44,897 nt of DNA from Candidatus Borrarchaeota archaeon (GCA_016840315.1 JAEOSO010000001.1:1-44897), one strand, 5' to 3'; counted from the stretch's first letter, positions 1 to 44,897 are shown. Numbers and translations are program-made. Notes: generated by a model from the letters alone, not told the origin.

Positions 1-165
1 AGTTGTGACTGTGATAACGTGATAGAGAGGGACAAAAATAGTGCGATCATCCTAATGAAACGTTACCTATCACAGAATGCCAAGTGGACGGGCTATCGGG
101 TATTTCTCGATAATCTGCGACACACAGCCGAATGTAAAACGAAAGTTTCTCCCGTAGGGAGTTAG
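1..165 (+). CDS. tnpB: TnpB-like (IS200/IS605 OrfB) C-terminal end; the 5' part lies outside the window
   Basis: Frame 1 from base 1 reads SCDCDNVIERDKNSAIILMKRYL. This is the second Cys pair of the TnpB zinc finger followed by the RuvC-III D-R-D-x-N type motif. Stop TAG at 163-165. GC-richer than the AT-rich flank that begins near 210. Confidence 0.55.
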   Translation, partial: SCDCDNVIERDKNSAIILMKRYLSQNAKWTGYRVFLDNLRHTAECKTKVSPVGS

Positions 166-209
166 GAGGACTCGCAGGAAGTCCCATCCGTCAGAGTGGG
201 GTAGTTCAC
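66..209 (+). ncRNA. TnpB omega (right-end) RNA scaffold, copy 1, ending in GTAGTTCAC at 209
   Basis: About 140 nt overlapping the 3' end of the tnpB fragment. Homologous to 44213-44352 with stem-preserving differences (TATCG/CGATA versus CATCC/GGATG). A terminal hairpin CCCA...TGGG is followed by GTAGTTCAC, a terminus shared with other IS ends in the window. Confidence 0.5.
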
Positions 210-3717: not shown

Positions 3718-5307
3718 GTATTTACTCACGTAAGCCCCATCACGAGCATATCCTTGCTTATAAAACCATTGTCTTACGCCTAAACCACTAAGGACTGAAA
3801 TTTTCGCGACATCGTAGTGTTCTCTGCTGAGGCGTTCTGCCTCATTTAATAATAATTCTCCTATCTTACGGTGTTGGACCTGATGGAGATTTGGTTTTTT
3901 TCCAATTGGAACCAGTTCTCCAAAAACACGCAGTTCTCTTACGATAGTTGTCATCGTTTCTGTGATTTCTTTTCGATGGGCTTTCTCAGATGGGACACGC
4001 AGCCGTATTAATCCAAGAAGAATATCTTGTTTTGTATCCTCGTATGAAATGAAATTTTCGATTCCTTCTGAAGCGTCATTTTTATCTATGATGATTTCGA
4101 GATTTTCTGGTTTTGGAGTGATTCCTGATTTTCTATGAACGATACCTTGTTCGCGACATCTAATACAAGAGCATGTTATTCCACTTTTGCTTAATTCTTC
4201 ATGCGCAAGCTCTCTAAGATTGCCTTTCTTGACTCCATCTTCGATCATCTTCGCAGAAATATCTCTTTGAATTCTCTGTATACGAACCCACCTTGGAATA
4301 TTTGGTAAAACTTGCGATAATAGACTCGTCATTGTTTCAGTGTTATAAGGTTTGTAGTTACCACTCTGCCATAATTCATACAGTTCTGTGTCTTTGATAA
4401 CCAAACAAGGATAAATCTTCAGATTATCTGGCTTAAAAAAGGGGTTTTCAAAGATCTCTTGAAACATTTTCAGATCTCGTTCTACATTCGATCCCGGAAG
4501 ACCTGGCATAACATGAAATGCAACCTTTATTCCAGCATCCTTTAGAATGCGAGTGGCTTCAATAACGTCCTGAACTGTGTGACCTCTTTTGCATATCTCA
4601 TAGACATCGTCAAAAATAGTTTGTACACCCAATTCAACAGTAGTGACGCCCAAATGAAGCATATCATCTGTATGGGATATCTTGGAATAATCCGGGCGCG
4701 TTTCGACAATGATACCTACAAGCTTTCGTTGTGCTGTTTCTACAGCCCTTTTGAGTTCTTCAAAATCAGAATAGCTTTCATCACATAGCGCTTCAAGGCA
4801 TCTGTGAACGAAACTTAATTGATATTCATAGGGTAAATAAGTAACCGTCCCGCCTTTCAAGGATAGGAGAATCTTGTCTGTGGCATGACCTATAAGTTCC
4901 AATTGATTAAGCCTCGTCTTTACCTGCAAATAAGGGTCGTAATCGTTTTGTATACCTCGCATCGTTGAAGGTTCGTGTCCAGTGTAACTCTTTGGAACAT
5001 CTGAAAAAGTTGGACAATAGATACATGACTGATTAGGGCAGGGATAAGGCTTTATCATAACTGCAACGACAGCAATACCTGAGATTGTTCGCATACTCTT
5101 TGTCTTTAATATAGGAAGAAGAAGCATTTTTTCCTCTGGAGTTGTGTGGGAAAGAATAGTCGCGTTCGAGACAATACCTACTGAAGGATATTTCTTTGCA
5201 TGACGTTTTTTGAGTTTCTGAACAAGCTGTGCATCTACCTCAGATAAAGTCGTAAGTAATTCCTCAATAATTCCCCTGCAAACACTTTCTTCTAACGTAC
5301 TGGACAC
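3709..5307 (-). CDS. elp3: Elp3-type radical SAM / GNAT tRNA modification enzyme
   Basis: Radical-SAM Cys cluster region (CPNQSCIYCP), Elp3 core, C-terminal GNAT-like domain (HRKIGELLLNEAERL). Confidence 0.85.
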   Translation of the reverse strand: MSSTLEESVCRGIIEELLTTLSEVDAQLVQKLKKRHAKKYPSVGIVSNATILSHTTPEEKMLLLPILKTKSMRTISGIAVVAVMIKPYPCPNQSCIYCPTFSDVPKSYTGHEPSTMRGIQNDYDPYLQVKTRLNQLELIGHATDKILLSLKGGTVTYLPYEYQLSFVHRCLEALCDESYSDFEELKRAVETAQRKLVGIIVETRPDYSKISHTDDMLHLGVTTVELGVQTIFDDVYEICKRGHTVQDVIEATRILKDAGIKVAFHVMPGLPGSNVERDLKMFQEIFENPFFKPDNLKIYPCLVIKDTELYELWQSGNYKPYNTETMTSLLSQVLPNIPRWVRIQRIQRDISAKMIEDGVKKGNLRELAHEELSKSGITCSCIRCREQGIVHRKSGITPKPENLEIIIDKNDASEGIENFISYEDTKQDILLGLIRLRVPSEKAHRKEITETMTTIVRELRVFGELVPIGKKPNLHQVQHRKIGELLLNEAERLSREHYDVAKISVLSGLGVRQWFYKQGYARDGAYVSKYLR

Positions 5308-6229: not shown

Positions 6230-9200
6230 TTACAAAAACAATTTCTTGGCAGCTTTCTCAAACATATTAACATTGTTTCGCTCTATCTCTAGATCTGAGC
6301 GCGCTATTTTTTCTAATCTTTTATCTGCACAGTTTTTATCATTTTTTATCGTGTTTGGCATAAGAGAGATTTGCCGTCTTGTCAAAGAAACATTTGCAGC
6401 GATTTCCAAGGCTTTTGGAACACACTTCTCACCGTATTTCTCTTCTATTCTCAAGAACAAATCATATCCTAATGCGTAGGGATTGATAGTAGAGTTCTCA
6501 TATTTTAAGGCGAAATACTCATGCCTCACATTGAATTCTTCGCTTTCAAGTACCGTTTTTTTGAAATATTCTATCTCGTGATGTATCTCTTGAATAAACA
6601 GTTGATCCTGATCAGCGATTTTTTCAAGCAGTTTTTCGAAAGTCTTTAACTCTAACCATGTTGCGAATCCTTCATCGACTACCAATGTAGACACACAAAG
6701 CCATTGAATCCCTATGCCATACTTATTTGATATTTTTTCTAAATCTTTCATAAGCAATTCGATGCCTTTGTGGTAGTATTCTAATTCAAGCAATTTTTTC
6801 CCTAATGTCGTATGCTGATGGAAGTAACCATGACCAAATTTTTCATGGATGATAATGCTCAGAAGGTTCGCGATGGATTGCGGATAAAGATATGTCTCCA
6901 GATCATAAAGGATATTCATCTCACCAAGAGGATCTACAAAAGCCATCTGTTGTATTGGGATTTTGGAAATGGCTGTCTTTTTTGGAAGATGCGTCTTTCC
7001 ATCTTCTTCGGTTTCATAACGAAAATAATACTCTGATAGCGCTTCGCGAAATGAATTGATATCATGGTATACGATAGGAAATTCCCCCAATGTAATTCCT
7101 AATTCCTTCACGATATTCGCTACCAGACTGACTTTCTTATTGATTTCACTTACCACACCAGTTTTCAATGTTTTTTTAGGGTACACTTGTAACGTAACAG
7201 GCGATGTAAAAGCGCGGCATTTCACATTTTTTTTGTTGAGATATATTAGTTGTGGGTGCATCCTGCTATAGAATGGCATGGATGCCCGAACTGTGAATTC
7301 GATAAGAATTGGATCATTAGTTGATAGAAAGCGATTGATTTCTATCGTGCCATCATTTTCCAATTGCGTCCTTGAGATTACTTTTACTTCCTTTTTAGGG
7401 AACACACCATCGATTTGCTTAATATAGACCGAAGTATCGGAATTGATCTTTATTGCGTAATGTATTTCTTCATCCACCTCTACTTGAGCCTTATCAAGGG
7501 ATATAACAAAGTTTATACTGCTAGGTTCAAACTTAGTTGTTGCATCGAATACAGGAGTGTAAGGCGTAAAAGGTATAGCGATGGATTTGAAGACATTTTC
7601 CTCTATAGCCTCTAATTGAGGCAGGGTGGCAAGCGAGTCCCTTACAAATCCATATCGTTCCATATCTTCCGCATCTTTAAAATACTGAAGTGCTTCGCTC
7701 AACACGGCTGTCATTTTATCCTTAAGCGTGCTTTTCTCAGTAGGATCGTCGCTTTTCTGGAATAATAATGAATAATAGATATATTTCAATAACTTCTCGA
7801 ATCCAGAAACCCCACTGGATGTTTTTTTGAACATTTTCAAAGCACTGGTCGCATTTTCAAAAAACTTATTGGAAAAAGCAAAATTTGTATTCAATTCTGC
7901 GAGATTAAGGTCTGTGTCACGGCGCATAATTTCTAACGCATACATCCAACCTTGACAAAAGAACTTTAATCCTTCACATAATTGTTTCAATCGTTCGTCG
8001 GTTGCTAGCACCAGTGATGCATTTTCAAATTGATCGGATGCACTAGCAAGATATGAGGCTGCACTTTTATATTCACCATTTTTTATGGCAATTTCGGATT
8101 TTTCGAGCCCGAATAATCCGTTAGCAAAATTATAGTAGCCTGCAATGTGAATATTTCGATCAGTAAATGGTTTTAATAGAGCATTAGCCTCTTTAAGTAG
8201 TTTTAATGACTTCTCGCTGTATCCAGTATTACGATAGATTAATGATTTCAAAATATTGGATTGAGCAACGCAAAACGCCTTTGAGGATTCAAAAAAGAAT
8301 TGTTGTGAGTCATAAGCGCTTCTATCAATAAAATATTGAAATTGAGGTTTATGATCTTCAACATAGTGTTTCCCAGCCTCCTCAAATAGACGAGTAATAT
8401 TGGTCAGAATTTTGAGCGTTTCTCTGTAATTTTCCTCTACAAAACACAAAAATGCCTCTTCAAGCAAGGAATATACCTTATATAATACACTTTCATATGA
8501 ATACAGTTCATGTGATTGTAACAGTGAACCTGCCCTATTGTATAATGCCAAAGCGTGGGTATAATTTCCATTATGATGTGAGTCCTTTGCTTTTGAAACC
8601 ATCAACCTAGCTTGTAGGTATGTGTTCAAATTATGATAATACGGATAATCTTTTCCTGCTTGGATTATCTTATCTATAAGATGAATCGCTAGTTCGTAAT
8701 GTTCTATTGATAACGGGTAATCTTGGTAATCTTCCGCAATTATGGCGATTTTATATGCCTCAAAAAACGCATCCTTGAACTCATCGGTCTCTAATGCAGA
8801 TTTATATGATTTCTTAGCAAATATTACTGCCCTTTTAAAGTAGGTCTGGTTGTGTTCGACTTTTGATAAGTCTAAATATAGTGAAGAAAGATCACGCCAA
8901 TTAGAATATACATGTGCCGACCAAGCTGCAGAAATTTTTTCATCGTCTATGAGTAATTCCTCACATTTTTTCAAATAGTCTAACTTCTCTTTTCGTGAAG
9001 TAGCAAATGATGCCTTTATCATATACACTGTGTTCAGGGCGTGATGCAATTCTGCCTTATCGCGAGTACTCTTCATTTTCGCAGATAGAGATATCTCGTT
9101 CATCTTTTCTGCAGATTTTATAGCTTCGTTGATATAATAATTAAATTTTTTCTCTTTTACTGCTTCGAAATAGACAATAGAGGTATAGATAAGTGCCTGG

Positions 9201-10120
9201 ATTTCATATCGATAGAAATGTAGGTGTGGCATGCAAATCAGGGTTTCGTATTTATGTAGTTTCTTGAAATCATTCAAAATTTCATTGAATAATGCTCTTT
9301 TTCTCTCACTTACCCCCGCTGCATGATTTACGCGCTCTAAGTTGAGCCGAACGTAGTTTAATAGAGCCAAATATTCAAATTCAATTGAACCATATGAACG
9401 AGCCACCTCAAACAAGGTATCATAAGGACGCATAAATTCTATAAAATCTGCTTCAGTAGTAGCTTTGTCTCCTTGTAGTATTAGTTTTGGCAAATAATCG
9501 ATAAAGGCAAAAATATAAGCTGATAAGACACGTGCGTCTCTGTTGTTCGTGTTTTGACTTAGTTCTAGGGCTTTATGTGCTAATTCTCTAGTTTTCTCTA
9601 AAACATCCCTTTTTTGTTTAAGAGTTGCCTCCTTAAATTTATGAAAAAGTTGCAAAACGAGTCCGTAGGCACGCCAAACACATCCTAAAGAATAATAATC
9701 ACTGATTTCAATATCAAGATATTTTTTTGGCGCTAGTGTCACTTTTTTGATTATTTTTCCACCTAAGTTGCAGATATCCTGAATAGATGCTTCTTCGTTT
9801 TCATATTTCATGGTATGGTACTTTAGGAAGCATTCTAGATGGTATGATCTCAAAAGTTGTCTTATCTGGTTCATTTCTTCTAAAAGGCTACGCGCATTGA
9901 ATATTAGTTCAAGAGCTCGATTATATTGTAGTAGACGCTTTTCACTATTCTTGATCACTAAGCAGTATTCGATAATAACTTCTGCCGTGTTTAAGCAGAT
10001 GACCGGATCCTTCAGTTGTTGCATTGTTTCTAATTGAGAAAGGATGTCATGTATTTTCTTTTTTCTTTCTTCCAGAGTTCGGATTTTAAAATAACTTTGC
10101 ATCTCACTTTCAAAATTCAT
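6230..10120 (-). CDS. Large uncharacterised protein (1296 aa): about 850 aa of alpha-helical TPR-like repeats, a beta-rich middle domain and a C-terminal HExxH/DEGFA gluzincin-like peptidase domain
   Basis: Uninterrupted 3.9-kb ORF. HEKFGH is encoded at 6830-6847 and VVDEGFATWLE lies about 45 aa downstream, the pattern of MA-clan peptidases. No P-loop, no signal peptide and no TM segment were seen. Confidence 0.6.
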   Translation of the reverse strand: MNFESEMQSYFKIRTLEERKKKIHDILSQLETMQQLKDPVICLNTAEVIIEYCLVIKNSEKRLLQYNRALELIFNARSLLEEMNQIRQLLRSYHLECFLKYHTMKYENEEASIQDICNLGGKIIKKVTLAPKKYLDIEISDYYSLGCVWRAYGLVLQLFHKFKEATLKQKRDVLEKTRELAHKALELSQNTNNRDARVLSAYIFAFIDYLPKLILQGDKATTEADFIEFMRPYDTLFEVARSYGSIEFEYLALLNYVRLNLERVNHAAGVSERKRALFNEILNDFKKLHKYETLICMPHLHFYRYEIQALIYTSIVYFEAVKEKKFNYYINEAIKSAEKMNEISLSAKMKSTRDKAELHHALNTVYMIKASFATSRKEKLDYLKKCEELLIDDEKISAAWSAHVYSNWRDLSSLYLDLSKVEHNQTYFKRAVIFAKKSYKSALETDEFKDAFFEAYKIAIIAEDYQDYPLSIEHYELAIHLIDKIIQAGKDYPYYHNLNTYLQARLMVSKAKDSHHNGNYTHALALYNRAGSLLQSHELYSYESVLYKVYSLLEEAFLCFVEENYRETLKILTNITRLFEEAGKHYVEDHKPQFQYFIDRSAYDSQQFFFESSKAFCVAQSNILKSLIYRNTGYSEKSLKLLKEANALLKPFTDRNIHIAGYYNFANGLFGLEKSEIAIKNGEYKSAASYLASASDQFENASLVLATDERLKQLCEGLKFFCQGWMYALEIMRRDTDLNLAELNTNFAFSNKFFENATSALKMFKKTSSGVSGFEKLLKYIYYSLLFQKSDDPTEKSTLKDKMTAVLSEALQYFKDAEDMERYGFVRDSLATLPQLEAIEENVFKSIAIPFTPYTPVFDATTKFEPSSINFVISLDKAQVEVDEEIHYAIKINSDTSVYIKQIDGVFPKKEVKVISRTQLENDGTIEINRFLSTNDPILIEFTVRASMPFYSRMHPQLIYLNKKNVKCRAFTSPVTLQVYPKKTLKTGVVSEINKKVSLVANIVKELGITLGEFPIVYHDINSFREALSEYYFRYETEEDGKTHLPKKTAISKIPIQQMAFVDPLGEMNILYDLETYLYPQSIANLLSIIIHEKFGHGYFHQHTTLGKKLLELEYYHKGIELLMKDLEKISNKYGIGIQWLCVSTLVVDEGFATWLELKTFEKLLEKIADQDQLFIQEIHHEIEYFKKTVLESEEFNVRHEYFALKYENSTINPYALGYDLFLRIEEKYGEKCVPKALEIAANVSLTRRQISLMPNTIKNDKNCADKRLEKIARSDLEIERNNVNMFEKAAKKLFL

Positions 10121-15368: not shown

Positions 15369-15489
15369 TGCAAATGTGCAAAGAAAGCCCAGTCCTTCAG
15401 GGCGGGGATGAATTTGCACAAACTTTATATAGGATTCTGCCCTTAAATACTTAGTGATATGTTCCGAGAGTCGCATCGGAGTTATTTTT

Positions 15490-16770
15490 ATGCAGGTGAA
15501 GAAAGGAATCAGGTTGCAGATATATCCGAATAAAGAGCAGAGCATACTGCTCAATAAAACGCTCGGTTGCTGTCGATTCCTTTATAACAAGATGCTGGAA
15601 GAACATGTCAAGATTTATGCTCAATTAAAAGACGATAAGGACGCGCTCTACAGTCATCAATACAAGACTGCGAAGCAATACAAGCAGGAGTTCCCGTTTC
15701 TTAAAGAAGTGGACGCTAAGGCTCTGCAAACTGAGAACCGACACCTGTTTGCCGCCTACCAGCACTTTTTTGAGGGGCTTAAAACGGGCAGGGCGGTGGG
15801 CTTTCCCAAGTTTAAGTCAAAGAAACAATACCCGCAGACCTATACCACGTATAACATCAACAACAGCATACGGATCGACAACCAAAAACGGAAGATACGC
15901 ATTCCGAAGGTCGGTTGGATCAAGTACAGGGATAACCGCGCGATTACCGACCCGATCAAGCACATCACCCTCAGCAAGACGGCAACTCACAAATACTTCG
16001 TGGCGGTAACGGTGGTGTGTGAGATGGAAATACCGCCCAAGAAGACGGTCTTAAACCGCGAGGATATTGCGGGGTTCGACATGTCGGCGACACACTTTCT
16101 GATCGGCGAAAGAGTGCAGTACGAGAACCCGCGATTTTATAGGGAAGAAGAGAAACGCCTCAAGAAACAACACAGAGAATTATCGCGGAAAGAAAAGGGA
16201 TCAAATAATTGGGAAGCGGCACGGCTCAAACTGGCGAGTACCTATGAAAAAATTAACAACCGAAAGCGCGATTGGTTACACAAGACCACCCATGACTTGA
16301 GCGAGAGATACGATGCCGTTATCTTAGAAAACCTCAATATCAAGGGGATGCAGCAGTTCAACTCGGGTCTTAGTAAGTCCATCGCGCTGGACTTCTCTTG
16401 GTGTCAGTTTCGGACGTATTTGGACTACAAAGTGGACTGGAAGGGCAAGTATTTCGTCCTGATTGACCGTTTTTTCCCCTCCAGCAAACTGTGTTCGGTC
16501 TGCGGTCAGATAAACAATGACCTCACACTGAGCGATAAAGCCTGGACTTGTAAACATTGCAGCACTACACACCATCGAGATAAAAATGCCGTCGTCAATA
16601 TCAAAAGCGAAGGTGTCAGAATCCTACAAGAAGAAATCGGAATCGTGGTCTACCCACACCATGATACGTCTACCGTAGGGACTACGGGAAGTCACGCCTC
16701 TGGAGAGAATGTAAGACCCTATACCGATACCGGGCAGTTCTCGTTGAATGAGGAATCCACTTGCCTTTAG
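15490..16770 (+). CDS. tnpB: TnpB RNA-guided endonuclease (IS605 OrfB type), apparently intact
   Basis: N-terminal KGIRLQIYPNKEQ..LGCCRFLYN. RuvC motifs GFDMS, ILENLNIKGM and HRDKNAVVNI. Zinc finger CSVCG..CKHC. Confidence 0.85.
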   Translation: MQVKKGIRLQIYPNKEQSILLNKTLGCCRFLYNKMLEEHVKIYAQLKDDKDALYSHQYKTAKQYKQEFPFLKEVDAKALQTENRHLFAAYQHFFEGLKTGRAVGFPKFKSKKQYPQTYTTYNINNSIRIDNQKRKIRIPKVGWIKYRDNRAITDPIKHITLSKTATHKYFVAVTVVCEMEIPPKKTVLNREDIAGFDMSATHFLIGERVQYENPRFYREEEKRLKKQHRELSRKEKGSNNWEAARLKLASTYEKINNRKRDWLHKTTHDLSERYDAVILENLNIKGMQQFNSGLSKSIALDFSWCQFRTYLDYKVDWKGKYFVLIDRFFPSSKLCSVCGQINNDLTLSDKAWTCKHCSTTHHRDKNAVVNIKSEGVRILQEEIGIVVYPHHDTSTVGTTGSHASGENVRPYTDTGQFSLNEESTCL

Positions 16771-28250: not shown

Positions 28251-28561
28251 GTCAATTACCCCTCCCTGTCGGAAGGGGCTTGAAAGAGTCCCTGTAGAGG
28301 GGTAGGAGATTAGCCTGAGTGATGTCTCCTCCAGGGTGGAGGCAGATGAACTACGTTCGGGGCTGAGTGTCTGAAAATCACCCCGGAATGCTCCTCAAGT
28401 TCCGGGCTCTGAAAGACATGGTGGACGACCCAGGTCGCTATCCTGAGACCTGCACCATCATCATGTCCTGTGCCTGCCCCAACATTGGCGATGAGGACCT
28501 ACCCGCTTCGGCGGAGCTGACCTTTACAGGTCGTTAAAGATAGTTAGTTTGGGAGTTGTTA
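28251..28561 (+). ncRNA. Predicted IscB omega RNA scaffold (upstream of and abutting iscB); limits approximate
   Basis: About 310 nt, non-coding and GC-rich. Many local stems: AGGAGA/TCTCCT, CCGGAA-11nt-TTCCGG, CCGC-TTCG-GCGG, GACCT-TTAC-AGGTC. Its position matches known IscB systems. Confidence 0.55.
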
Positions 28562-29770
28562 ATGTTACTGATGAAAGCCTACGTTCAAACTGCACGGGGA
28601 AAACCCTTAGACCCTACCACTCCGGCCAGAGCTAGACTCTTGATAGCAGGAGGCCGAGCAAAAGTGGTAGCGCGAACGCCGTTCACCATTCGTATGCTAA
28701 ACCGAGACATGGGCTATACTACCGAAGTAACGCTGGGAATTGATAGCGGCTATTCAAAGGTGGGGTTTTCAGCCGTTACCCAGAAAGAGGAACTGCTGGC
28801 GGGCGAACTGGCGTTACGAAGCGACATGTCTAAGAAATTGGAGCAGAAGAGAAACTATCGAAGAAACCGGCGCAGCCGCAATACCCGATATCGGGTGCCG
28901 CGGTTTGATAACCGGAAACGGGAAGAGGGTTGGTTGGCCCCATCTCTTCGCCATAAGAAGCAAGCTCATATCACACTGATTGAAATGATTAAGACCCTGG
29001 TACCCGTCATCCATACCGAACTGGAGGTAGCTACCTTTGATACCCAGTTGCTACAAAACCCGGAAATCTCGGGGGTCGAATATCAACAGGGGACGTTGCA
29101 AGGTTACCATATACGAGAGTACCTGCTGGAAAAATGGGGACGGAAGTGCGCCTATTGCGGAAAAACTGGAGTGCCACTTCAGGTGGAACATATCATCCCC
29201 AAGTCACGGGGTGGCAGTGATCGGGTCTCGAACCTCACCCTGAGTTGTAGCTGCTGCAATCAGCAAAAAGGTGATCGCACCGCCGCCGAGTTCGCCCACC
29301 CTGAAATCCAACGACAGGCGAAGACATCAATGAAAAGCGCGACTTTCATGAATCTGGTCCGATGGCAACTGGTTAACGACTTGGAGTGCAATCACACGTA
29401 CGGCTACCTCACCAAGAAACGACGGATTGAGGCGGGGTTAGTAAAATCACACCTCAATGACGCCTTTATTATCGCCGGAGGCCACCAGCAAATCAGGTGT
29501 AGCCCCTTCATGTTGATCCAACCCCGGCGCAACAATAGAAGTATCCAATTGAATAGAAAAGGGTATGGACGCAGCATCCGGACACAACGGTATGTCTTAC
29601 AGCCTCATGACCTCGTCTCTTATGAGGGACTGCGGTGTCAGGTCAAGGGAATGTTCAACCGGGGGCGTTGGGTGCGATTGAAAACCCCAACCGGCGCTAC
29701 CGTTAATACCCACGTCAAAAAAGTGAAATTAGTGAGGTATGGCAGCGGCTTGCAGTTCAGCCGCCCATAA
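28562..29770 (+). CDS. iscB: IscB RNA-guided nuclease (RuvC split by HNH), apparently intact
   Basis: PLMP-like N-terminus (GKPLDP..ARLLIAGGRAKVV), RuvC-I GIDSGYSKVGFS, Arg-rich helix RNYRRNRRSRNTRYRVPRFDNR and RuvC-II LEVATFD. HNH is CAYCG..LQVEHIIPKSRGGSDRVSNLTLSCSCCNQQKG. RuvC-III is KSHLNDAFIIAG, followed by a beta-rich C-terminal tail. Alternative ATG at 28571. Confidence 0.85.
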   Translation: MLLMKAYVQTARGKPLDPTTPARARLLIAGGRAKVVARTPFTIRMLNRDMGYTTEVTLGIDSGYSKVGFSAVTQKEELLAGELALRSDMSKKLEQKRNYRRNRRSRNTRYRVPRFDNRKREEGWLAPSLRHKKQAHITLIEMIKTLVPVIHTELEVATFDTQLLQNPEISGVEYQQGTLQGYHIREYLLEKWGRKCAYCGKTGVPLQVEHIIPKSRGGSDRVSNLTLSCSCCNQQKGDRTAAEFAHPEIQRQAKTSMKSATFMNLVRWQLVNDLECNHTYGYLTKKRRIEAGLVKSHLNDAFIIAGGHQQIRCSPFMLIQPRRNNRSIQLNRKGYGRSIRTQRYVLQPHDLVSYEGLRCQVKGMFNRGRWVRLKTPTGATVNTHVKKVKLVRYGSGLQFSRP

Positions 29771-29999: not shown

Positions 30000-32900
30000 A
30001 TGAGGGAAATCATAATGACTTATGATACCATGAAGGAATATAGAACATCCAGCAAAGTTACAGGTCCGCTTCTTTTTGTTGAAGGTGTATCAGGTGTAGG
30101 ATATGCTGAAATTGTTGAGGTAGAAACACCATCAGGCGATAATCGACGCGGTCAAGTGCTTGAAGTAGCAGAAGGCCTTGCTGTAGTTCAGGTTTTTGAA
30201 GGAACTTCTGGTTTAGACACGTCAGTTACGTCTGTGAGATTTCTTGGTGAGACGCTCAAACTACCCGTCTCGGCTGATATTCTGGGACGTGTGTTTGATG
30301 GCAGTGGAGAACCAATAGATGGCGGTCCTAAAATTATTCCTGACGACCATTTCGACATTACAGGCGCACCAATTAATCCGGACGCACGTACCTACCCAAG
30401 AGAATTCATTCAAACTGGGATCTCAACGATAGATGGATTAAACACTCTCGTTCGTGGTCAGAAACTTCCACTATTCAGTGGTGCAGGGCTCCCGCACAAT
30501 TATATTGCGGCTCAAATTGCGCGTCAAGCTCGTGTGCTAGGAGAAGCGGAAGATTTTGCTATAGTGTTTGCCGCCATGGGAATCACATACGAAGAAGCAG
30601 CTTTCTTCCGTAAAGACTTTGAGGGAACTGGTGCATTAGAACGTGTTACGCTCTTTCTGAATCTAGCTGATGACCCTGCAGTTGAACGTATAATCACACC
30701 ACGTGTAGCACTAACTTGTGCAGAGTATCTCGCGTATGAACAAGATTATCAGGTATTGGTTATTCTTACAGATATGACTAACTATTGTCTCCACGGCAAG
30801 TCAAGGATATTTCTAGAAGATGGAACAATTACTACGATCGGTGAACTTGTTGAAGCAATTAAAGCGGGTAATCTCGATTTAAAAGATATTCGTGTTGCTA
30901 CGTTAGATATGAATTATAAATTGAACTATAGATCAGTAATTGATGTGCAAAAAATTCCATCGCCAAGAAAGCTTCTGGTGATAAAAACCCGTTCAGGTGG
31001 GGAAGTAATTGTCACTGGAGATCACAAAATACTCGTAGACATGATAGAAGGTCCGAAGATGATTCCTGCTGAGGAATTAGAAATAGGACAAGAAATCTAC
31101 TCCGTGAATCGCTTAGATGTAGATGCCAATACTGAAGATCTACCTTCATTGCTTGAAGTTTTGCAAGATTCTCCAGAACGTTTTTTCGTAACCTTTTCTG
31201 ATAAAGACATAAGTGAGAGCATTAATAACGCGTTAAAAAATAAACATGGTAGTCTTGGTAAAGCATGTGAATTACTCGATTTAAAATACAACCGTATTAC
31301 TGATAATTATGAAAAAAGAAGATACACGGTTGACGAACTGGGTAGAATAGGCAAAGCGCTTTCCTGGGAGAAATACCAGTGGAAATTGCTTTCATCTAAG
31401 ATTGATAAGATTGGTGCAGGTAAGAAAAGAACTGATTTAGCAAAAGGTTTTGATCTTTATACTGATGATTTCTTCTACTTTCTCGGTTTCATAGCTTCAG
31501 ATGGAACTGTTGGGATTTATGAAAATAAACGAAAAGATGGTAGCCTAAAAGGTTATACATACAAAGTTGGATTTGCCAATAAAATCAAAGATGTCGTTGT
31601 AAATACCAAAAAACTGGTCCAAAAATACATTCCTTCATTTGATCCGTCTTTACAACAAAACCAAAACGGCGTTTGGATTTGTGATACCAGTAATTTATTC
31701 CTAATGCGGTTAATAGAGATTTTCGGTGTTAAAGGCAGAGTAAAGGATGAAGAATGCTATTACCCCATCTTTAAACTCCCCGAGAACCTTATTGCGAGTT
31801 TCTTGCAAGGATATTTTGATGGTGACGGAACCGTACCACGTAAAGAAAAAGCTGTAAAGTTCGCTGTAGGTAAATTACCAGATTCTTTAGCACCAGGTTA
31901 TCCTCCTGAGCAGAGTAAAGAGAGGGCTAAAAACATTCAGCTACTGCTAAAAAGGCTTGGAATAGCCTCAAAAATATTAAAACGTGATACAACGAGTATA
32001 AAACCCGGCGACGAAAAAGGAACAAGTATAATTTATGATGTAGTAGTTAGAGGTAAACGGGATGTTCTCAAATTCATCGAGAATATTAACTCCAGACATC
32101 CAGAAAAGAGTGAAAAACTCAAAAAATTAGCAAGAGAATTAGAATCGATTCCTGATGTAACAACAGACTTCGAAAAAGCACCGTTAATCTCTGGTTCGTT
32201 GATTAAAAAGACGCGTGAGCATTTAAATCTACCTCAAACTTTCTTTGGCACATCTAGTCGGATTAGTGAAATTGAAAGTGGTAAAAAACGGCTGGGGAAT
32301 TTTGATTTATTACAAATGGCAGATAAAGTTGTAGAAGTTTATTTCAGTAATCCTGGACATCATAATATCAACGAATTGCATGATATGGAGAGTTTTGGCA
32401 GTGGCGACTTCATTCTTGATAAAATCGTAGAAATTGAAGAAATAGAATCTGACTCAGATTTTGTCTATGATATAACCATGGCTGAGGTTATGATCGGAAA
32501 TGAATTGGGTTCTCGTAAATCAGTAGGGTTCCGCGACAAAACTCATCGATTCGTTACTGATAATGGGTTAGTTGTTTCTAACTGTGAAAGTTTACGAGAG
32601 ATCTCCGCTGCCCGCGAAGAAGTTCCAGCTAGAAGAGGTTACCCAGGGTACCTCTATACCGACCTCGCAAGTATTTACGAACGGGCAGGGAGAATTACAG
32701 GAAGAAAAGGAACAATAACACAGATGCCTATTCTTACAATGCCCAATGACGACATCACACATCCCATACCCGACTTAACAGGCTATATAACCGAAGGACA
32801 GATTTACGTTGATCGTGGTCTACATAGAAGAGGTATTTATCCTCCAATCGATGTTTTACCTTCACTATCACGCTTGATGAAGGAAGGTATTGGAAAAGGA

Positions 32901-33206
32901 CTAACACGTGAAGACCATAGAGAAGTTGCTGACCAATTGTATTATGGTTACTCTGAAGGAAGAGATCTGCGAGAACTAGTAGCAGTAGTAGGCGAAGAAG
33001 CGCTTACAGAGAGAGATAGAAGATACTTAGAGTTTGCCGAGCGTTTTGAGCGGGAATTCACAAGCCAACGGATGGATGAGGATCGTTCAATCGATGATAC
33101 ATTAGATATAGGGTGGGAACTTCTTGCAAAATTACCCGAAAAGGAACTCAAGAGGATCGATCCTGATACAATTAAAAAATGGCATCCTTCATATCGCGCG
33201 CGCTAA
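30000..33206 (+). CDS. atpB: A/V-type ATP synthase subunit B, containing an intein
   Basis: The exteins read ..[11 protein letters not shown] / [29 protein letters not shown].. The start could be a downstream ATG (30015 or 30030). Confidence 0.9.
30786..32582 (+). mobile_element. Full-length intein (599 aa) with a LAGLIDADG homing endonuclease
   Basis: Block [14 protein letters not shown], block [19 protein letters not shown] motifs [14 protein letters not shown] and [13 protein letters not shown]-terminal GLVVSN followed by the +1 Cys. Confidence 0.85.
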
Positions 33207-41263: not shown

Positions 41264-41510
41264 TTATTTTTTTTGCTAACAAATTTCTAATCAGATTTTC
41301 CAAACTCACATTTATTTTCATAGCTTTTTGTGATTTTGTAAAAAAACCATGAAATTTTGGCACCATTTCCGTATCACCTATCAAGGTTAAGAATCACGAT
41401 CACGGCTTTTCTGCCTATTAAAAGAAAGATTGGCACAGAATTTATCAATGCCCGTGAAGATTTGAAGACTACCAATAACTGCGCTAAAAAATTCCAAATT
41501 TACTGGGGTG

Positions 41511-41858
41511 ATGCACATGGAATGGGATATTCAAAGTGTCCTTAAAAGTGTCTTTGGAAAAATCGTTGAAGTTGGATTCAATGAAAACGGACCACATGCC
41601 GACATATATCTTAAAAATCTATTAACACCATTGAGAGAATACATCTATCAGTTTTTTGAAGTTGTAGATGCGAAATTACTACTACCTCGCGATCATCATT
41701 TGTTTTCGCAATTCATGAAAGCAATTGCTGATATCTTCGTTGGAGTCGAAGCTTTTCTGTCCGGAGTACTTGATCGGGAGAAATTACTCAGTCTATTACA
41801 AAAAACTGAGAAGATTCTGTTGAACTCCGATGCTGCGACACTTTTCCTAGGATCTTAG
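41511..41858 (+). CDS. Small predicted helical hypothetical protein (about 115 aa)
   Basis: ORF with GGGG upstream of GTG/ATG 41508/41511. No recognised motif. Confidence 0.45.
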   Translation: MHMEWDIQSVLKSVFGKIVEVGFNENGPHADIYLKNLLTPLREYIYQFFEVVDAKLLLPRDHHLFSQFMKAIADIFVGVEAFLSGVLDREKLLSLLQKTEKILLNSDAATLFLGS

Positions 41859-41900
41859 GCGATTTTTGCCAAATATATAAGATTTGGAGGAGAATAAATT

Positions 41901-42002
41901 ATGGAAATAAATAATCAAAGTCCAAAAATAGATGAAAATAAAAGAGATAACACTAAGCGTTTTCTCTTCTATAGAGAAGATGTTTTTCCAGTTCCCTTTT
42001 GA
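41901..42002 (+). CDS. 33-codon upstream ORF whose stop overlaps the GTPase start
   Basis: GGAGGAG about 7 nt upstream of ATG 41901. The TGA at 42000-42002 overlaps TTG 41999-42001. Confidence 0.3.
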   Translation: MEINNQSPKIDENKRDNTKRFLFYREDVFPVPF

Positions 42003-42631
42003 AGGGGGTGACAAAATTTCAAAAAAACTCTCTAAAAAACTCATTACGTCTCGTTGAAAGAGAAACCAGTGAAAAAAGCACTGTAGAAGAACGCGAGAGA
42101 CCAAAAAAGGAATATGTAGTCAAAATAATCGTTGCTGGAGACGGGGGCGTAGGGAAAACAAGTTTACTAAATAGATATATCTCAAATGAATTTGTAGAAG
42201 GCATGAAACTTACTGTCGGGACTGATTTCTTTACTCACGTCTGCGACTGTAAAGGGCGTACCTTAAAAATTCAAGTCTGGGATTTTGGTGGCGAACCAAG
42301 ATTCAGATTCATCCTCCCAGATTATTGCAAGGGTGCGTGCGGTGTTTTGCTGGCCTTTGACCTAAATGATTTTGCCACGTTGATAAACTTGAATGAATGG
42401 CTACAAATTATCAGGGAAAACGTAGCAGATTCCGTAACAATTCTGGTTGGAACGAAAGCAGACCACGCAGAGTTTTTGGACGAGGAAACTATTAAACAAT
42501 TTTGTATAATAAATGAAATCGACGAATTCATCCCAACAAGTTCGAAAACGGGTGAAAACGTAGATTTTGTATTTTACGAGTTAATAAGACGTATTATAAC
42601 AAAAAAAATAAGTTTTGGCGGGGTTAAGTAA
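41999..42631 (+). CDS. Ras/Rab-like small GTPase
   Basis: G1 GDGGVGKT, switch I Thr (LTVGTDF), G3 WDFGGEPRF, G4 TKAD, G5 SSK. Start uncertain (TTG 41999 or GTG 42008). Confidence 0.8.
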   Translation: MKGVTKFQKNSLKNSLRLVERETSEKSTVEERERPKKEYVVKIIVAGDGGVGKTSLLNRYISNEFVEGMKLTVGTDFFTHVCDCKGRTLKIQVWDFGGEPRFRFILPDYCKGACGVLLAFDLNDFATLINLNEWLQIIRENVADSVTILVGTKADHAEFLDEETIKQFCIINEIDEFIPTSSKTGENVDFVFYELIRRIITKKISFGGVK

Positions 42632-42990
42632 TGTTAAACAGTCTGGCAGAGAATGAAAGTAATAATCAAAATCCAAATTTGGAAATTTTATTCTTTACGT
42701 CTTCCATTAATCCTCATCCTAAGATAGAAAAATATCTTGTAGAGACGATTGAGAAAAGAAAATTACCGATAAAAGTTACTAAGATAGACGTATTAAGAGC
42801 CCCGGAAGCCGCGGAGAAACATAATATAATCGTATGCCCTACACTTATTTTCCGTGACTTTATGAAAGTGTACGGTAATTGTGAGCAAGAAGAACTAGAA
42901 GACCTTTTATCTACCTATGGTTCTCTGACGACTTCTGAATTTCAGCATCAATCAGTCATTACACCAATTGGTGAGAGTCATTATGTATAA
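42631..42990 (+). CDS. KaiB/thioredoxin-fold protein, paralog 1 (no CxxC)
   Basis: LEILFFTSSINPHP..IDVLRAPEAAEKHNIIVCPTLIF, with a cis-Pro loop of the Trx fold. The ATG overlaps the GTPase stop (TAATG). Confidence 0.65.
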   Translation: MLNSLAENESNNQNPNLEILFFTSSINPHPKIEKYLVETIEKRKLPIKVTKIDVLRAPEAAEKHNIIVCPTLIFRDFMKVYGNCEQEELEDLLSTYGSLTTSEFQHQSVITPIGESHYV

Positions 42991-43342
42991 TAGTCCAACG
43001 GTAGAGAATGCAAGTCATAATCAAAATCCAAATTTGGAAATTTTATTCTTTACGTCTCCCTTTAGTCCTCATCCCAAACTAGAGCGGCGGCTTTTGAAGG
43101 CGATTGAAAAAAAAGAATTGCCAATAAAGGTAACCAAAATAAATGTTTTAAGAGCCCCCGAGGCTGCGGAGGAATATAATATAGTCGCATGTCCCACACT
43201 TATTTTCCGCAACTTCATGAAAGTATATGGAAATTGTGAACGAGAAGAGTTGGAAGAGCTAGTATTAAATTATTCCTTATTGTCTTCAGAATTTCAACAT
43301 CAATCAACTATTACAGCTTTTGGCGGTGTAAATCATGTTTAA
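42983..43342 (+). CDS. KaiB/thioredoxin-fold protein, paralog 2 (no CxxC)
   Basis: Near-duplicate of paralog 1, sharing a stretch of about 38 identical nt (aatcaaaatccaaatttggaaattttattctttacgtc). The ATG overlaps the preceding stop by 8 nt. Confidence 0.65.
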   Translation: MYNSPTVENASHNQNPNLEILFFTSPFSPHPKLERRLLKAIEKKELPIKVTKINVLRAPEAAEEYNIVACPTLIFRNFMKVYGNCEREELEELVLNYSLLSSEFQHQSTITAFGGVNHV

Positions 43343-43685
43343 CTATCCGACAACAGAGAAAAAAAACCATAATCAAGATTCAATTTTGGAAATCTTATTT
43401 TTTTCCTCGCCAGCATGCGGTCCTTGCCCCATAATGGAAAAACGTATTTTAGAAGCAATAGACAAAAAGAAATTGCCAATAAAAGTGAAGAAAATCGATG
43501 TTATAAAATATCCTGAGGCAGCAGAGGAATATGATGTAGTAGCGTGTCCAACACTTATTTTTCCCAACTTTATGAGAGTGTGTGGTTGCTATGAGACAGA
43601 GATCATTGAGGAATTGATATCTACTTATTTTGCTTCTGCTTTTGAATTTCAGACGATCAAGCAACCAGAAATAAGTTCTAAATGA
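43335..43685 (+). CDS. Thioredoxin-like protein, paralog 3, with a canonical CGPC motif
   Basis: LEILFFSSPACGPCP..IDVIKYPEAAEEYDVVACPTLIF. Same 8-nt overlap junction as paralog 2. Confidence 0.7.
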   Translation: MFNYPTTEKKNHNQDSILEILFFSSPACGPCPIMEKRILEAIDKKKLPIKVKKIDVIKYPEAAEEYDVVACPTLIFPNFMRVCGCYETEIIEELISTYFASAFEFQTIKQPEISSK

Positions 43686-43704: not shown

Positions 43705-43935
43705 TTACTCTGGACGACGTTCTGGAATAGAGCCCGTTTGTTTGCCTGACGCAAAAAGTTCTTTCGTTAAATACAGGCCGCAATAACATTGACCATATTC
43801 TTCCAAATCAGGTTTAGCATACACACAAGGGCAGATTATATCCTTATCTTCGTCCCTCAAGCCCTCCACAAGTCGACAGGGGCAAGAAAAATACTCATAG
43901 CGATTCCAGTTAGTTGTCAATCCTTCACGAAGCAA
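43705..43935 (-). CDS. Ferredoxin:thioredoxin reductase catalytic-subunit-like protein, 5'-truncated by a MITE; the conserved frame continues to 43968
   Basis: CPCRLVEGLRDEDKDIICPCVYAKPDLEEYGQCYCGLY shows the CPC..CPC..C(H/Y)C signature. Only a TTG start remains at 43935. Confidence 0.65.
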   Translation of the reverse strand: MLREGLTTNWNRYEYFSCPCRLVEGLRDEDKDIICPCVYAKPDLEEYGQCYCGLYLTKELFASGKQTGSIPERRPE

Positions 43936-43968
43936 CTGTACAAGTTCTTTATCGTGATTTAACTTTAT

Positions 43969-44352
43969 CGGCGGGAAGTCCCCATCCGACAGCGAGGATA
44001 TGAAAGCCGCTAGCTTTATATAGTTTGTTGCAACGAAGAGTTACGATGAATATCGGGAGGAAGGCAGGGATACAAGACTCCCGGTAGGAGGACAGAAGAG
44101 GCGGCCTTGTGAGCGAGGATTTTACAGTTGTTAACCAGCGCGAATAACCGCGAAGGTAACAGTACAATGGCATTTGACGAATCCGTATAGTGTGATGCTG
44201 GAACTGAAGTTTCCTATCACAGAATGCCAGGTGGACGGGCCATCCTCAAAAGGGGATGAACTGCGACACACAGCCGAACGTAAAACGAGAGTTTCCCGCA
44301 TGGGTTGGGAGGACTCGCAGGAAGCTCCAGCCGTAAGGGTGGAGTAGTTCAC
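43969..44352 (+). mobile_element. tnpB-less IS200/IS605-derived MITE (384 bp) carrying an omega-RNA scaffold
   Basis: GC-rich. It starts after TTAT (43965-43968) with a hairpin region similar to the right-end hairpin and ends in GTAGTTCAC (44344-44352). No long ORF in the sense orientation. Confidence 0.65.
44213..44352 (+). ncRNA. Orphan TnpB omega (right-end) RNA scaffold, copy 2 of the 66-209 family
   Basis: Aligns over about 140 nt with 66-209, with identical blocks (cctatcacagaatgcc, ctgcgacacacagccgaa, ggaggactcgcaggaag) and compensatory stem changes. Confidence 0.55.
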
Positions 44353-44379
44353 TTCCCAGCCTTGATGTTTGGCAACCAT
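44353..44379 (-). pseudogene. Displaced first nine codons (MVAKHQGWE) of the interrupted FTR-like gene
   Basis: ATG at 44379. The reading frame runs directly into the MITE right end. It joins 43968 in frame if 43969-44352 is removed. Confidence 0.5.
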
Positions 44380-44469: not shown

Positions 44470-44897
44470 TCAGTATATGCCGAATACTGCTCCGTATTCA
44501 GCTTCATCAAAGCCAACTACACATTTTTTATCATCAACAATAAGAAAAGGATAGGAAACATATCGACCGAATTTTTCTTTCAAAACTTCACGTAATTTAT
44601 TTGCAGTATTTTCGGTTAATTCATCTACATACACATATTCAAATTCAATAGAATTAGCCCTCAAGAATTCAAGTGCACGACGACCAAATCCGCCTCTTGA
44701 CAACACGTAAAGTCTTACTTTCCAACGTTTATTTTCGCCGGGTTCGCGTATAAATTGTATCTCTGATGGATGTGTAGGAGTGGGTTCAGGTATTTCAGGA
44801 GGAACAGGAGTGGGTTCAGGTATTTCAGGAGGAACAGGAGTGGGTTCAGGAATTTCAGGAGTAACAGGGGTGGGTTCGGGTATTTCAGGAGGAACAG
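44470..44897 (-). CDS. Glutaredoxin-fold protein lacking CxxC, with an N-terminal Pro-rich decapeptide repeat; the N-terminus lies outside the window
   Basis: KVRLYVLSRGGFGRRALEFL..YPFLIVDDKKCVVGF follows the Grx/NrdH pattern but has GFGR in place of CxxC. The frame stays open upstream to the window end. Confidence 0.6.
   Translation of the reverse strand, partial: VPPEIPEPTPVTPEIPEPTPVPPEIPEPTPVPPEIPEPTPTHPSEIQFIREPGENKRWKVRLYVLSRGGFGRRALEFLRANSIEFEYVYVDELTENTANKLREVLKEKFGRYVSYPFLIVDDKKCVVGFDEAEYGAVFGIY
44777..44897 (-). repeat. 30-nt tandem repeat, at least 4 copies, coding (VPPEIPEPTP)n
   Basis: ggagtgggttcaggtatttcaggaggaaca repeated head to tail with 0-4 mismatches. It continues past the window end. 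Confidence 0.9.

Follow-up and report, generated by a model that had tools for sequence, protein, structure and literature searches.

The 44,897-nucleotide (nt) stretch of DNA from a Candidatus Borrarchaeota archaeon (GCA_016840315.1 JAEOSO010000001.1:1-44897), termed here the window, carries close to its end a compact gene cluster in which a Rab-like small GTPase is translationally coupled to proteins with a thioredoxin fold. Six tightly packed open reading frames (ORFs), termed hyp116, sORF33, GTPase1, TrxA1, TrxA2 and TrxB, occupy positions 41517-43685 of the plus strand, and are faced on the opposite strand by FTRc, which encodes a clear homologue of the catalytic subunit of ferredoxin:thioredoxin reductase (FTR), and by a second GTPase gene, GTPase2, whose product is fused to a glutaredoxin-fold domain. 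The features of the locus are listed in Table 1, with coordinates counted from the first letter of the window. An initial annotation of the sequence had described a translationally coupled operon in which a Ras/Rab-like GTPase precedes three tandem KaiB/thioredoxin-fold proteins. The coupled operon of a GTPase and tandem thioredoxin-fold proteins is supported by the recurring arrangement and by the overlaps between the genes. The initial annotation had missed the CGPC motif of TrxB, the two upstream genes hyp116 and sORF33, and the downstream FTRc and GTPase-glutaredoxin fusion on the opposite strand.

Table 1. Features of the GTPase-thioredoxin-fold locus in window coordinates.
Feature	Position	Strand	Description
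Inverted repeat	41296..41343	+	TTTTCCAAACTCACA (41296..41310), 18 nt, TGTGATTTTGTAAAA (41329..41343); non-coding, upstream of hyp116
hyp116	41517..41858	+	113-aa orphan; probably the first gene of the operon
sORF33	41901..42002	+	33-codon ORF MEINNQSPKIDENKRDNTKRFLFYREDVFPVPF*; ends at TGA 42000-42002
GTPase1	41999..42631	+	Rab-like small GTPase, 207-210 aa; start TTG 41999 or GTG 42008
TrxA1	42631..42990	+	A-type thioredoxin-fold protein, 119 aa
TrxA2	42983..43342	+	A-type thioredoxin-fold protein, second copy, 119 aa
TrxB	43335..43685	+	B-type thioredoxin, 116 aa, CGPC intact
FTRc, C-terminal part	43705..43965	-	Convergent with the operon; Pfam FeThRed_B
378-nt insertion in FTRc	43966..44343	+	Probable IS200/IS605-type miniature element, no tnpB
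FTRc, N-terminal remnant	44344..44379	-	MVAKHQGWEVNY; found by tblastn with FTRc of locus L009, also read directly
GTPase2, C-terminal part	44470..44897	-	Runs off the window end; Pro-rich repeats, then glutaredoxin-fold domain

Starts overlap the preceding stops at every junction from the sORF33 stop through the TrxB start. As the initial annotation had stated, GTPase1 and TrxA1 meet in the sequence TAATG, where the TAA stop (42629-42631) gives its last A to the ATG at 42631, and the second and third thioredoxin-fold genes overlap the stop before them by 8 nt each, the two junctions reading ATGTATAA and ATGTTTAA. The GTPase start, which had been placed at 41901, has to be moved: the ATG at that position lies in another frame, closes at TGA 42000-42002 and opens the separate 33-codon sORF33. 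The GTPase frame begins at TTG 41999, overlapping the stop of sORF33 (TTTTGA), with GTG 42008, the choice of gene callers in the orthologues, as an alternative start. Ribosome-binding sites of the GGnGGnG type are located 4-8 nt before the starts of hyp116, sORF33 and the three Trx genes, reading in gene order GGGGTGA (5 nt before the hyp116 start), GGAGGAG (8 nt upstream of sORF33), GGCGGGG, GGTGAGAG and GGCGGTG. Those of the three Trx genes fall within the 3' end of the gene upstream, where their in-frame reading constitutes the conserved "GGV" C-terminal tails of GTPase1 and of the A-type thioredoxins. As read from the sequence, hyp116, sORF33, GTPase1, the TrxA gene or genes and TrxB form a single predicted transcription unit. 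A scan for bacterial-type promoters and terminators was uninformative, the host being an archaeon.

The genes were mapped on 23 of the 32 retrieved loci (designated by L numbers), namely those holding a thioredoxin-family member, and on the window's own tail. The loci include the GTDB representatives Ca. Sifarchaeum marinoarchaea, Ca. Borrarchaeum weybense and Ca. B. yapensis, and NCBI assigns the mapped ones to two Asgard phyla. The arrangement and its overlaps recur in ~20 independent contigs representing roughly nine lineages. Apart from L019, every contig with enough flank displays the order (TFIIE-like, MoxR AAA+, VWA), hyp116, sORF33, GTPase1, TrxA and TrxB, and in every contig with enough flank the operon is faced on the opposite strand by FTRc and then GTPase2. 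All loci share one and the same 8-nt overlap between TrxA and TrxB; GTPase1 and TrxA also overlap in every case, by 1-26 nt depending on the locus. Synonymous divergence is near saturation, with a synonymous substitution rate (dS) of ~1.1-1.3 for hyp116 between the window and the Borrarchaeum loci; thus, the conserved order does not merely reflect recent common ancestry. The pairing with a GTPase that had been noticed in this one genome is therefore conserved in others, where a paralogous GTPase is also fused to a thioredoxin-fold domain. In scans of JGI metagenomes and of GTDB species representatives, the module was confined to contigs of Sifarchaeia/Borrarchaeia type.

The fusion is found in GTPase2. 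Within the window, this gene is represented by PEIPEPTPV proline-rich repeats followed by the glutaredoxin-fold domain. A separate 78-aa glutaredoxin-like ORF (44470..44706, minus strand), perhaps with a recoded upstream stop, was considered and rejected, as the frame is open to the window end. In L010, L011, L014, L015 and L019, GTPase2 is an uninterrupted ORF of 431-468 aa comprising a Ras domain 58-64% identical to GTPase1, a spacer of 150-200 residues built of PEIPEP..PP repeats, and the glutaredoxin domain. The repeats break many assemblies, with the result that databases list "partial" Rab family GTPases. The glutaredoxin domain lies below the threshold of Pfam Glutaredoxin (PF00462; 20.2-20.4 against 22.9), and its active site reads LYVLSRGGFGRRAL, both cysteines having been replaced in the change from CGFC to GGFG. 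A stand-alone relative, protein P0141, is 62% identical to the domain, matches Pfam Glutaredoxin at E = 4e-13 and reads LSTCGFCHRAL; P0141 and a second stand-alone relative, P0142, both retain the CxxC motif. The domain of GTPase2 is, judging from these motifs, one that has retained the fold and lost the chemistry. Three stand-alone CGFC glutaredoxin copies related to it, two of them adjacent, are found together on the short contig L024 (228..2209). The N-terminus of GTPase2 displays a conserved cysteine in the motif ILCAS(T/K)TKKEY (P0041 begins MCASTTKKEY), as seen together with the spacer in L010 (8122..9528, minus strand), L011 (8184..9479, minus strand), P0041, P0043 and P0044; this cysteine and the Pro-rich spacer might provide an anchor and a rigid tether. 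Two sister GTPases therefore flank the redox genes, one coupled to a cysteine-less thioredoxin-fold protein and the other fused to a cysteine-less glutaredoxin-fold domain. Because the sister GTPase is fused to a glutaredoxin domain, the GTPase and thioredoxin-fold parts probably work together physically, and this Rosetta-stone-type relation is the strongest argument that we can offer.

GTPase1 matches Pfam Ras at E = 2e-34 (118.9 bits against a threshold of 21.6), Roc at 6e-26 and Arf at 6e-11, and the NCBIfam model TIGR00231 at 4e-24. Its motifs comprise GDGGVGKT (G1), the threonine of LTVGTDF (G2), WDFGGEPRF (G3), TKAD with Thr for Asn (G4) and SSK (G5). The G1, G4 and G5 motifs of the initial annotation, as well as the G3 motif with Glu at the position of Ras Gln61, could all be read directly, but the weight placed on that Glu was excessive: WDFGGE(E/K/P)RFRF is a signature of the wider Asgard Rab-like family, and Glu was observed at this position in all 35 of the Asgard homologues examined, some of which are labelled Lokiarchaeota or Freyarchaeota. 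It was consequently rejected as a peculiarity of the operon in favour of a family-wide trait. The features particular to GTPase1 are an N-terminal extension of ~40 residues and the SFGGVK C-terminal tail. The C-terminus (...ISFGGVK) contains no cysteine, so that the Rab prenylation cysteines (CC, CxC) are absent. Among what we take to be the RabF motifs, KIQVW and RFRF are present when matched by eye, and YCKGA and LAFDLN are only partial. GTPase1 is, as far as its motifs tell, Rab-like and not a bona fide Rab. Its orthologues are 64-96% identical within Sifarchaeia/Borrarchaeia. The next-closest GTPase paralogs, P0038 and P0058, have no thioredoxin-fold neighbour, and a Trx or Grx Pfam domain was found in none of the best 120 GTPase homologues listed.

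The three small proteins share the motifs LEILFF, LPIKV.KI(D/N)V, PEAAE and CPTLIF, which had been recognised from the window and proved invariant or nearly so across the family. Among the families that had been suggested for the operon, profile searches confirmed Ras for the GTPase and placed TrxB alone above the Thioredoxin_3 threshold (PF13192; 25.4 against 24.8), while KaiB stayed below its cut-off for all three proteins. TrxB also matches Pfam Thioredoxin (PF00085) at E = 3.2e-9 (37.1 bits against a cut-off of 23.5). For TrxA1 and TrxA2, which stay below the Pfam Thioredoxin threshold at 18.0 and 20.1 bits, the assignment was made from the tree, from the family profile and from an identity of 50% to TrxB. 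A profile of 23 family members searched against the PDB retrieved the archaeal thioredoxins 1FO5 (MJ0307; E = 1e-8) and 1NHO (1e-5), with KaiB chains at ~7e-3, and the CPT motif of the family aligns with the AVPT cis-Pro loop of 1FO5. In NCBIfam the top rank is held by the MJ0307-family thioredoxin TIGR00411 (7e-6 and 8e-9, the latter for TrxB), with KaiB at 0.09 and 0.004; the family scores lie under the equivalog cut-offs for MJ0307-type thioredoxins. In single-sequence scans, Thioredoxin was matched by 20 of 20 family members (best E = 9e-10). The AlphaFold2 model of TrxA1, itself of low confidence, displays the order beta-alpha-beta-alpha-beta-beta-alpha, and its top 50 PDB matches in Foldseek are all thioredoxins.

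The resemblance to KaiB raised in the initial annotation is real but local, and profiles, NCBIfam and Foldseek all favour thioredoxin. Pfam KaiB (PF07689) gave 20.3 and 21.9 bits for TrxA1 and TrxA2 (20.3, 21.9 and 23.3 bits for the three small proteins, against a cut-off of 27), the match being confined to profile positions 20-56 of 82, which correspond to the stretch IDVL..P..AEE..I.A.PTL. KaiB was matched by 19 of 20 family members, always below threshold, and NCBIfam KaiB models gave 13-17 bits against cut-offs of 110-145 (TIGR02654: 12.9 and 17.1 against 145). Consistent with the earlier remark that no kaiC is nearby, neither KaiC nor a related protein was matched by any window ORF of at least 100 aa, and such a match is also absent from the related loci. 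Membership of the KaiB family was rejected on the partial, sub-threshold scores, the preference of the profile for thioredoxins and the lack of KaiB in the Foldseek top 50. By sequence and fold comparison, the small proteins are a divergent branch of the MJ0307-type archaeal thioredoxins, and their likeness to KaiB is superficial.

The family, which amounts to 18 clusters among 5.8 billion proteins, comprises two orthologous groups in both tree and alignment, and carries N- and C-terminal extensions of ~15-25 residues relative to MJ0307/MTH807-type thioredoxins. B-type proteins retain CGPC, present a CGC motif and end in YFASAFEF, and A-type proteins end in SEFQHQS.IT.IGGV.HV. At the CxxC site following beta1, TrxA1 reads I-NPH, TrxA2 F-SPH and TrxB CGPC. 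Across the A-type group, the active site displays a decay series from CGPC (P0010) through S-PC (P0004, P0012) to S-PH or SHQ. On their active-site residues, TrxA1 and TrxA2 are thioredoxin-fold paralogs and not thioredoxins in the catalytic sense. Other cysteines persist: one lies directly before the cis-Pro (ACPT) in both types, and nearly all members have another where the last helix begins (GNCE or CGC). TrxA1 retains the former as Cys69 and the latter as Cys84 (GNCE), and TrxB has a cysteine before the cis-Pro and the CGC motif besides CGPC. In thioredoxin structures, the pre-cis-Pro cysteine and the GNCE/CGC cysteine are expected near the active-site surface.

TrxA2 is 69% identical to TrxA1. 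Other lineages carry a single A gene followed by a single B gene, and two A genes before the B gene occur only in the window and in two close relatives, L013, whose mapped genes are all identical to those of the window, and L031 (~96% identical). Thus, the "triplet" is, on this gene distribution, a recent, lineage-specific tandem duplication of the cysteine-less copy. A third, more divergent cysteine-less paralog of 104 aa, 45-47% identical to TrxA1/TrxB, is encoded in L012 (6983..7297), L020 (3842..4117) and L021 (5001..5276), where it stands alone beside a FEN1-like gene, without a GTPase in the vicinity. KaiB is once more the best match in Pfam, below threshold (25.0 against 27).

The two genes at the start of the operon are less readily assigned. 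The hyp116 protein is 76-87% identical across all loci, in which it lies invariably directly upstream, and its ratio of non-synonymous to synonymous substitution rates (dN/dS) of ~0.11 reveals strong purifying selection. It is a strict orphan, with 2 clusters among 1.84 billion representatives in an exhaustive phmmer search and no match in Pfam, NCBIfam or a PDB profile search. The AlphaFold2 model is all helical, with a predicted bundle of four to five helices (predicted local distance difference test score, pLDDT, of 72), and this fold had no significant Foldseek match. The length, start, position and ribosome-binding site of sORF33 are alike in 10 loci, in which the C-terminal 20 residues are nearly invariant (KRD.TKRFLFY(R/K)EDVFPVPF), and gene callers annotate it in L005, L006, L031 and L032. 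Since sORF33 does not keep a constant frame with respect to the GTPase from locus to locus, it is not a frameshifted GTPase N-terminus. A programmed frameshift joining it to GTPase1 was likewise rejected, as the frame relation is variable (in L007 the two share a frame but a stop separates them) and sORF33 persists in L019 without GTPase1. Its median dN/dS of 0.35 is a weaker purifying signal than that of hyp116; variable sites number 17/15/24 by codon position, and the synonymous rate is below that of hyp116. These values indicate that sORF33 is likely under coding constraint, with nucleotide-level constraint also possible. Its product might serve as a micro-protein subunit; alternatively, sORF33 might be a leader ORF from which ribosomes terminating at TTTTGA pass on to the GTPase start. 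Upstream of hyp116, the inverted repeat formed by TTTTCCAAACTCACA and TGTGATTTTGTAAAA has 15-nt arms that are complementary at 13 of 15 positions and lies in a block conserved in 6 loci; further conserved blocks are found downstream of it in the ~250-nt non-coding region before hyp116. The leader presents no compensatory changes and essentially no covariation in favour of an RNA structure. The repeat may be an operator or a leader hairpin.

The facing FTRc gene is intact (112-116 aa) and at the same place in all lineages lacking the insertion found in the window. Its C-terminal piece in the window matches Pfam FeThRed_B (PF02943) at E = 2e-18, contains six cysteines arranged as CPC...CPC...CYC and shares 85% identity with the 112-aa gene of L009, which is intact. 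The break falls at the codons equivalent to W-K-L-N of the orthologue. The inserted DNA has a GC content of ~50% against ~36% in its surroundings and is flanked by an imperfect direct repeat of ~12 nt. Insert positions 244-377 are 80% identical to window 62..199, just after a tnpB 3' end, and 74% identical to the tnpB 3' end region in L001 (456..585). The same insertion is present in L013 (2672..3049) and in the L031 tail, that is, in three independent assemblies and in this lineage only, and it is real and probably fixed in the lineage that also duplicated TrxA. It is best read as a putative miniature element of the IS200/IS605 type, with a right-end/omega-RNA-like segment antisense to FTRc. 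A known RNA or intron was rejected, with no Rfam match even at E up to 5 and an ordinary folding energy.

Other genes were noted elsewhere in the window. Its first ~200 positions (plus strand) hold the 3' end of a TnpB/Cas12f-like gene with the C-terminal RuvC motif (...ERDKNSAIILMKRYL), cut by the window start. A complete TnpB of 438 aa (15454..16770, plus strand), with HTH_OrfB_IS605, OrfB_IS605 and Cas12f1-like TNB domains, directly follows a ketopantoate-reductase-like gene. A gene for an RRXRR and HNH endonuclease (28556..29770, plus strand) lies just upstream of atpA, and a related RRXRR gene is located between FTRc and GTPase2 in L005 (2985..3968, minus strand), which suggests a mobile gene landing repeatedly in these genomes. 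The gene for subunit A of the A-type ATP synthase (30000..33206, plus strand; 1068 aa) contains an intein with a LAGLIDADG homing-endonuclease domain. An ORF of 1296 aa (6230..10120, minus strand) matched no Pfam family with an E value of 0.01 or less.

The components of the locus are related to several known systems. MJ0307/MTH807-type thioredoxins (1FO5, 1NHO) are the best profile matches and share the beta-alpha-beta-alpha-beta-beta-alpha order with four strands, the cis-Pro loop and the CxxC position of TrxB. They differ from the present family in the cysteine before the cis-Pro, the extra GNCE/CGC cysteine, the loss of catalytic cysteines in most A-type members and the fixed operon with a GTPase. 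FTR systems (cyanobacterial and plant FTRc/FTRv with thioredoxin, the archaeal FTRc-like ferredoxin:disulfide reductase, NCBIfam FtrB) are paralleled by a six-cysteine FTRc homologue beside a CGPC thioredoxin and a glutaredoxin-type domain. In contrast to those systems, no variable subunit was seen here, the adjacent glutaredoxin domain is cysteine-less and fused to a GTPase, and FTRc is interrupted in the window's lineage. KaiB-KaiC, together with the N-terminal domain of SasA, offers a cysteine-less thioredoxin fold that regulates a P-loop NTPase by binding to it, and a local beta2-alpha2-beta3 resemblance; here, however, the GTPase is Ras-like instead of a RecA-like KaiC, no clock genes are nearby and a catalytically intact sister thioredoxin is present. 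Phosducin is a cysteine-less thioredoxin-fold binder of G-beta-gamma, and KaiB and phosducin illustrate how a thioredoxin fold devoid of cysteines can turn into a regulator that acts by binding alone. A Ras-superfamily GTPase adjoining or fused to a small partner, with the partnership deduced from adjacency or fusion, is familiar from MglA-MglB, from Asgard Rag-like GTPase-roadblock fusions (PMC10933270) and from an operon of LAMTOR-like, Rab-like and DENN genes (bioRxiv 10.1101/2020.10.19.343400). The partner at the present locus has a thioredoxin/glutaredoxin fold, unlike the roadblock, longin or DENN partners of those systems, and is adjoined by an FTR gene. Eukaryotic precedents are provided by TXNL1, which acts with Rab5 and GDP-dissociation inhibitor (GDI; PMC2043495), and by ERp57, which binds RalA-GDP in a GDI-like manner (PMC3511393). 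In both, a thioredoxin-fold protein binds a G protein or components of its cycle, and some of these interactions are sensitive to redox state and involve no disulfide chemistry of the GTPase. In contrast with the present locus, TXNL1, ERp57 and phosducin are not genetically linked modules; they have no detectable orthology to the proteins described here, for which the interaction itself is deduced.

The initial annotation had known of no described module linking a small GTPase to such proteins, and none was found in the literature searched. Full-text searches returned nothing relevant on Asgard GTPases with thioredoxin or glutaredoxin, and a large Asgard comparative-genomics preprint makes no mention of a link of this kind, nor does a structural survey of GTPases from Asgard archaea. 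The component families are known; their combination, together with the fusion and the two orphan components, appears to be undescribed and to belong to one Asgard clade.

We consider, with a probability of about one half, that the region is a lineage-specific GTPase-thioredoxin-fold module of Sifarchaeia/Borrarchaeia acting as a redox-linked switch. In such a switch, the cysteine-less thioredoxin-fold proteins would no longer be reductases and would bind the GTPase at ~1:1 as regulators, effectors or GDI-like partners, a partnership that in GTPase2 would have been fixed by fusion. TrxB would be the redox input, normally kept reduced by FTRc from ferredoxin and acting probably via the invariant pre-cis-Pro cysteine and the GNCE/CGC cysteine of TrxA and TrxB. 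The GTPase cycle would then report or respond to the ferredoxin/thiol redox state of the cell. The hyp116 protein and the 33-aa product are candidates for further subunits or regulators; alternatively, sORF33 may set downstream translation by termination-reinitiation. In the window's lineage, with FTRc broken and TrxA duplicated, the link to ferredoxin may have been lost or replaced.

Several observations weigh against such a switch. FTRc is interrupted by 378 nt in the window's lineage (window, L013 and L031), and the confidence of the TrxA1 model is low (pLDDT 57). No conserved cysteine pair peculiar to GTPase1 could be identified as a thioredoxin target, C110 being family-wide and C169 present also in paralogs without a Trx neighbour. 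A GTPase1 disulfide is thus the less likely redox route, and a direct disulfide switch on GTPase1 is unsupported. CGPC is kept in the TrxA of one lineage (L032), which implies that the non-catalytic state of TrxA is derived and not universal. The loci belong to one fairly narrow clade in which the flanking TFIIE-like, MoxR and VWA genes are syntenic as well, and gene order alone is therefore only weak-to-moderate evidence of a functional link. In L019 (Ga0180437_10015213, 4458..4600; Borrarchaeum-type), GTPase1 has been cleanly deleted, leaving its last ~10 codons (MSFGGVKN) with the TrxA ribosome-binding site, and sORF33, TrxA, TrxB, FTRc and the fused GTPase2 are retained; thus, the thioredoxins do not strictly need GTPase1. 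Finally, TrxA1 and TrxA2 present a dN/dS of ~0.6 between the window and L031, calculated from very few changes, and the duplicates may be under relaxed selection.

The last three of these points, namely the shared flanking synteny, the loss of GTPase1 but not of the thioredoxins in L019 and the elevated dN/dS of the duplicates, would also be accommodated by an ordinary thiol-redox cluster, in which the GTPases are merely co-expressed neighbours without contact and the copies without cysteines are duplicates in decay. Thioredoxin, FTRc and glutaredoxin genes are moreover expected together in a ferredoxin-dependent disulfide-reducing system. We nevertheless regard this explanation as rather unlikely. 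The GTPase2-glutaredoxin fusion is an open frame in at least five independent assemblies and is hard to explain without a functional link, and the start/stop overlaps with the GTPase are conserved in all loci. In addition, the cysteine-less TrxA has been kept at 57-75% identity despite near-saturated synonymous sites, with its non-catalytic motifs invariant.

It is improbable, though conceivable, that the GTPases are instead delivery or assembly factors, which would bring the thioredoxins or FTRc to a membrane or another location, or control the loading of cysteine-rich thioredoxin-fold proteins with iron-sulfur or metal cofactors, in the manner of metallochaperone G-proteins or of effector recruitment by Rabs. 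In the alignment, the five cysteines of TrxB (CGPC, CPT, CGC) cluster in the region of the active site. The Pro-rich spacer of GTPase2 is long and probably rigid, and the conserved cysteine at its N-terminus could act as an anchor. A MoxR AAA+ and VWA pair, typical of maturation chaperones, lies just upstream in all loci, but this linkage may be mere clade-wide synteny, and known metallochaperone GTPases are of the SIMIBI/G3E class, not Ras-like. Very improbable are KaiB-type fold-switching regulators that have exchanged KaiC for a small GTPase as their partner: the comparison of function is a fitting one, KaiB being itself a cysteine-less thioredoxin-fold regulator of a P-loop NTPase and marginally the best single-sequence Pfam match of the cysteine-less copies (20.3 against 18.0 bits; 21.9 against 20.1), but its similarity is restricted to beta2-alpha2-beta3, the family profile favours archaeal thioredoxins by ~six orders of magnitude, and TrxB and some A-type members carry CGPC.

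Asgard archaea possess many eukaryote-like small GTPases. In the cultivated MK-D1, a structural survey by Tran et al. noted that the genes for GTPases and for their regulators do not, as a rule, share an operon (PMC10933270), so that GTPases are hard to match to partners. The redox-linked module proposed here would offer a GTPase whose partners are assigned by the genome itself, through translational coupling, conservation across two phyla and a natural fusion in a sister protein, and would link that GTPase to the ferredoxin/thiol redox state. The locus also displays thioredoxin-fold enzymes in the course of turning into non-catalytic binding modules, graded from CGPC through S-PC to S-PH, and encodes a small set of short soluble proteins suited to direct tests of complex formation and redox-dependent nucleotide cycling. 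More tentatively, thioredoxin-fold pseudo-enzymes may be an unrecognised class of small-GTPase partners in Asgard archaea, forming with a live thioredoxin and FTR a redox-gated Rab-like switch of which sORF33 and hyp116 would be dedicated components. If true, prokaryotes would thereby have a counterpart to the scattered cases in eukaryotes in which thioredoxin-family proteins are linked to the Rab and Ral cycles.

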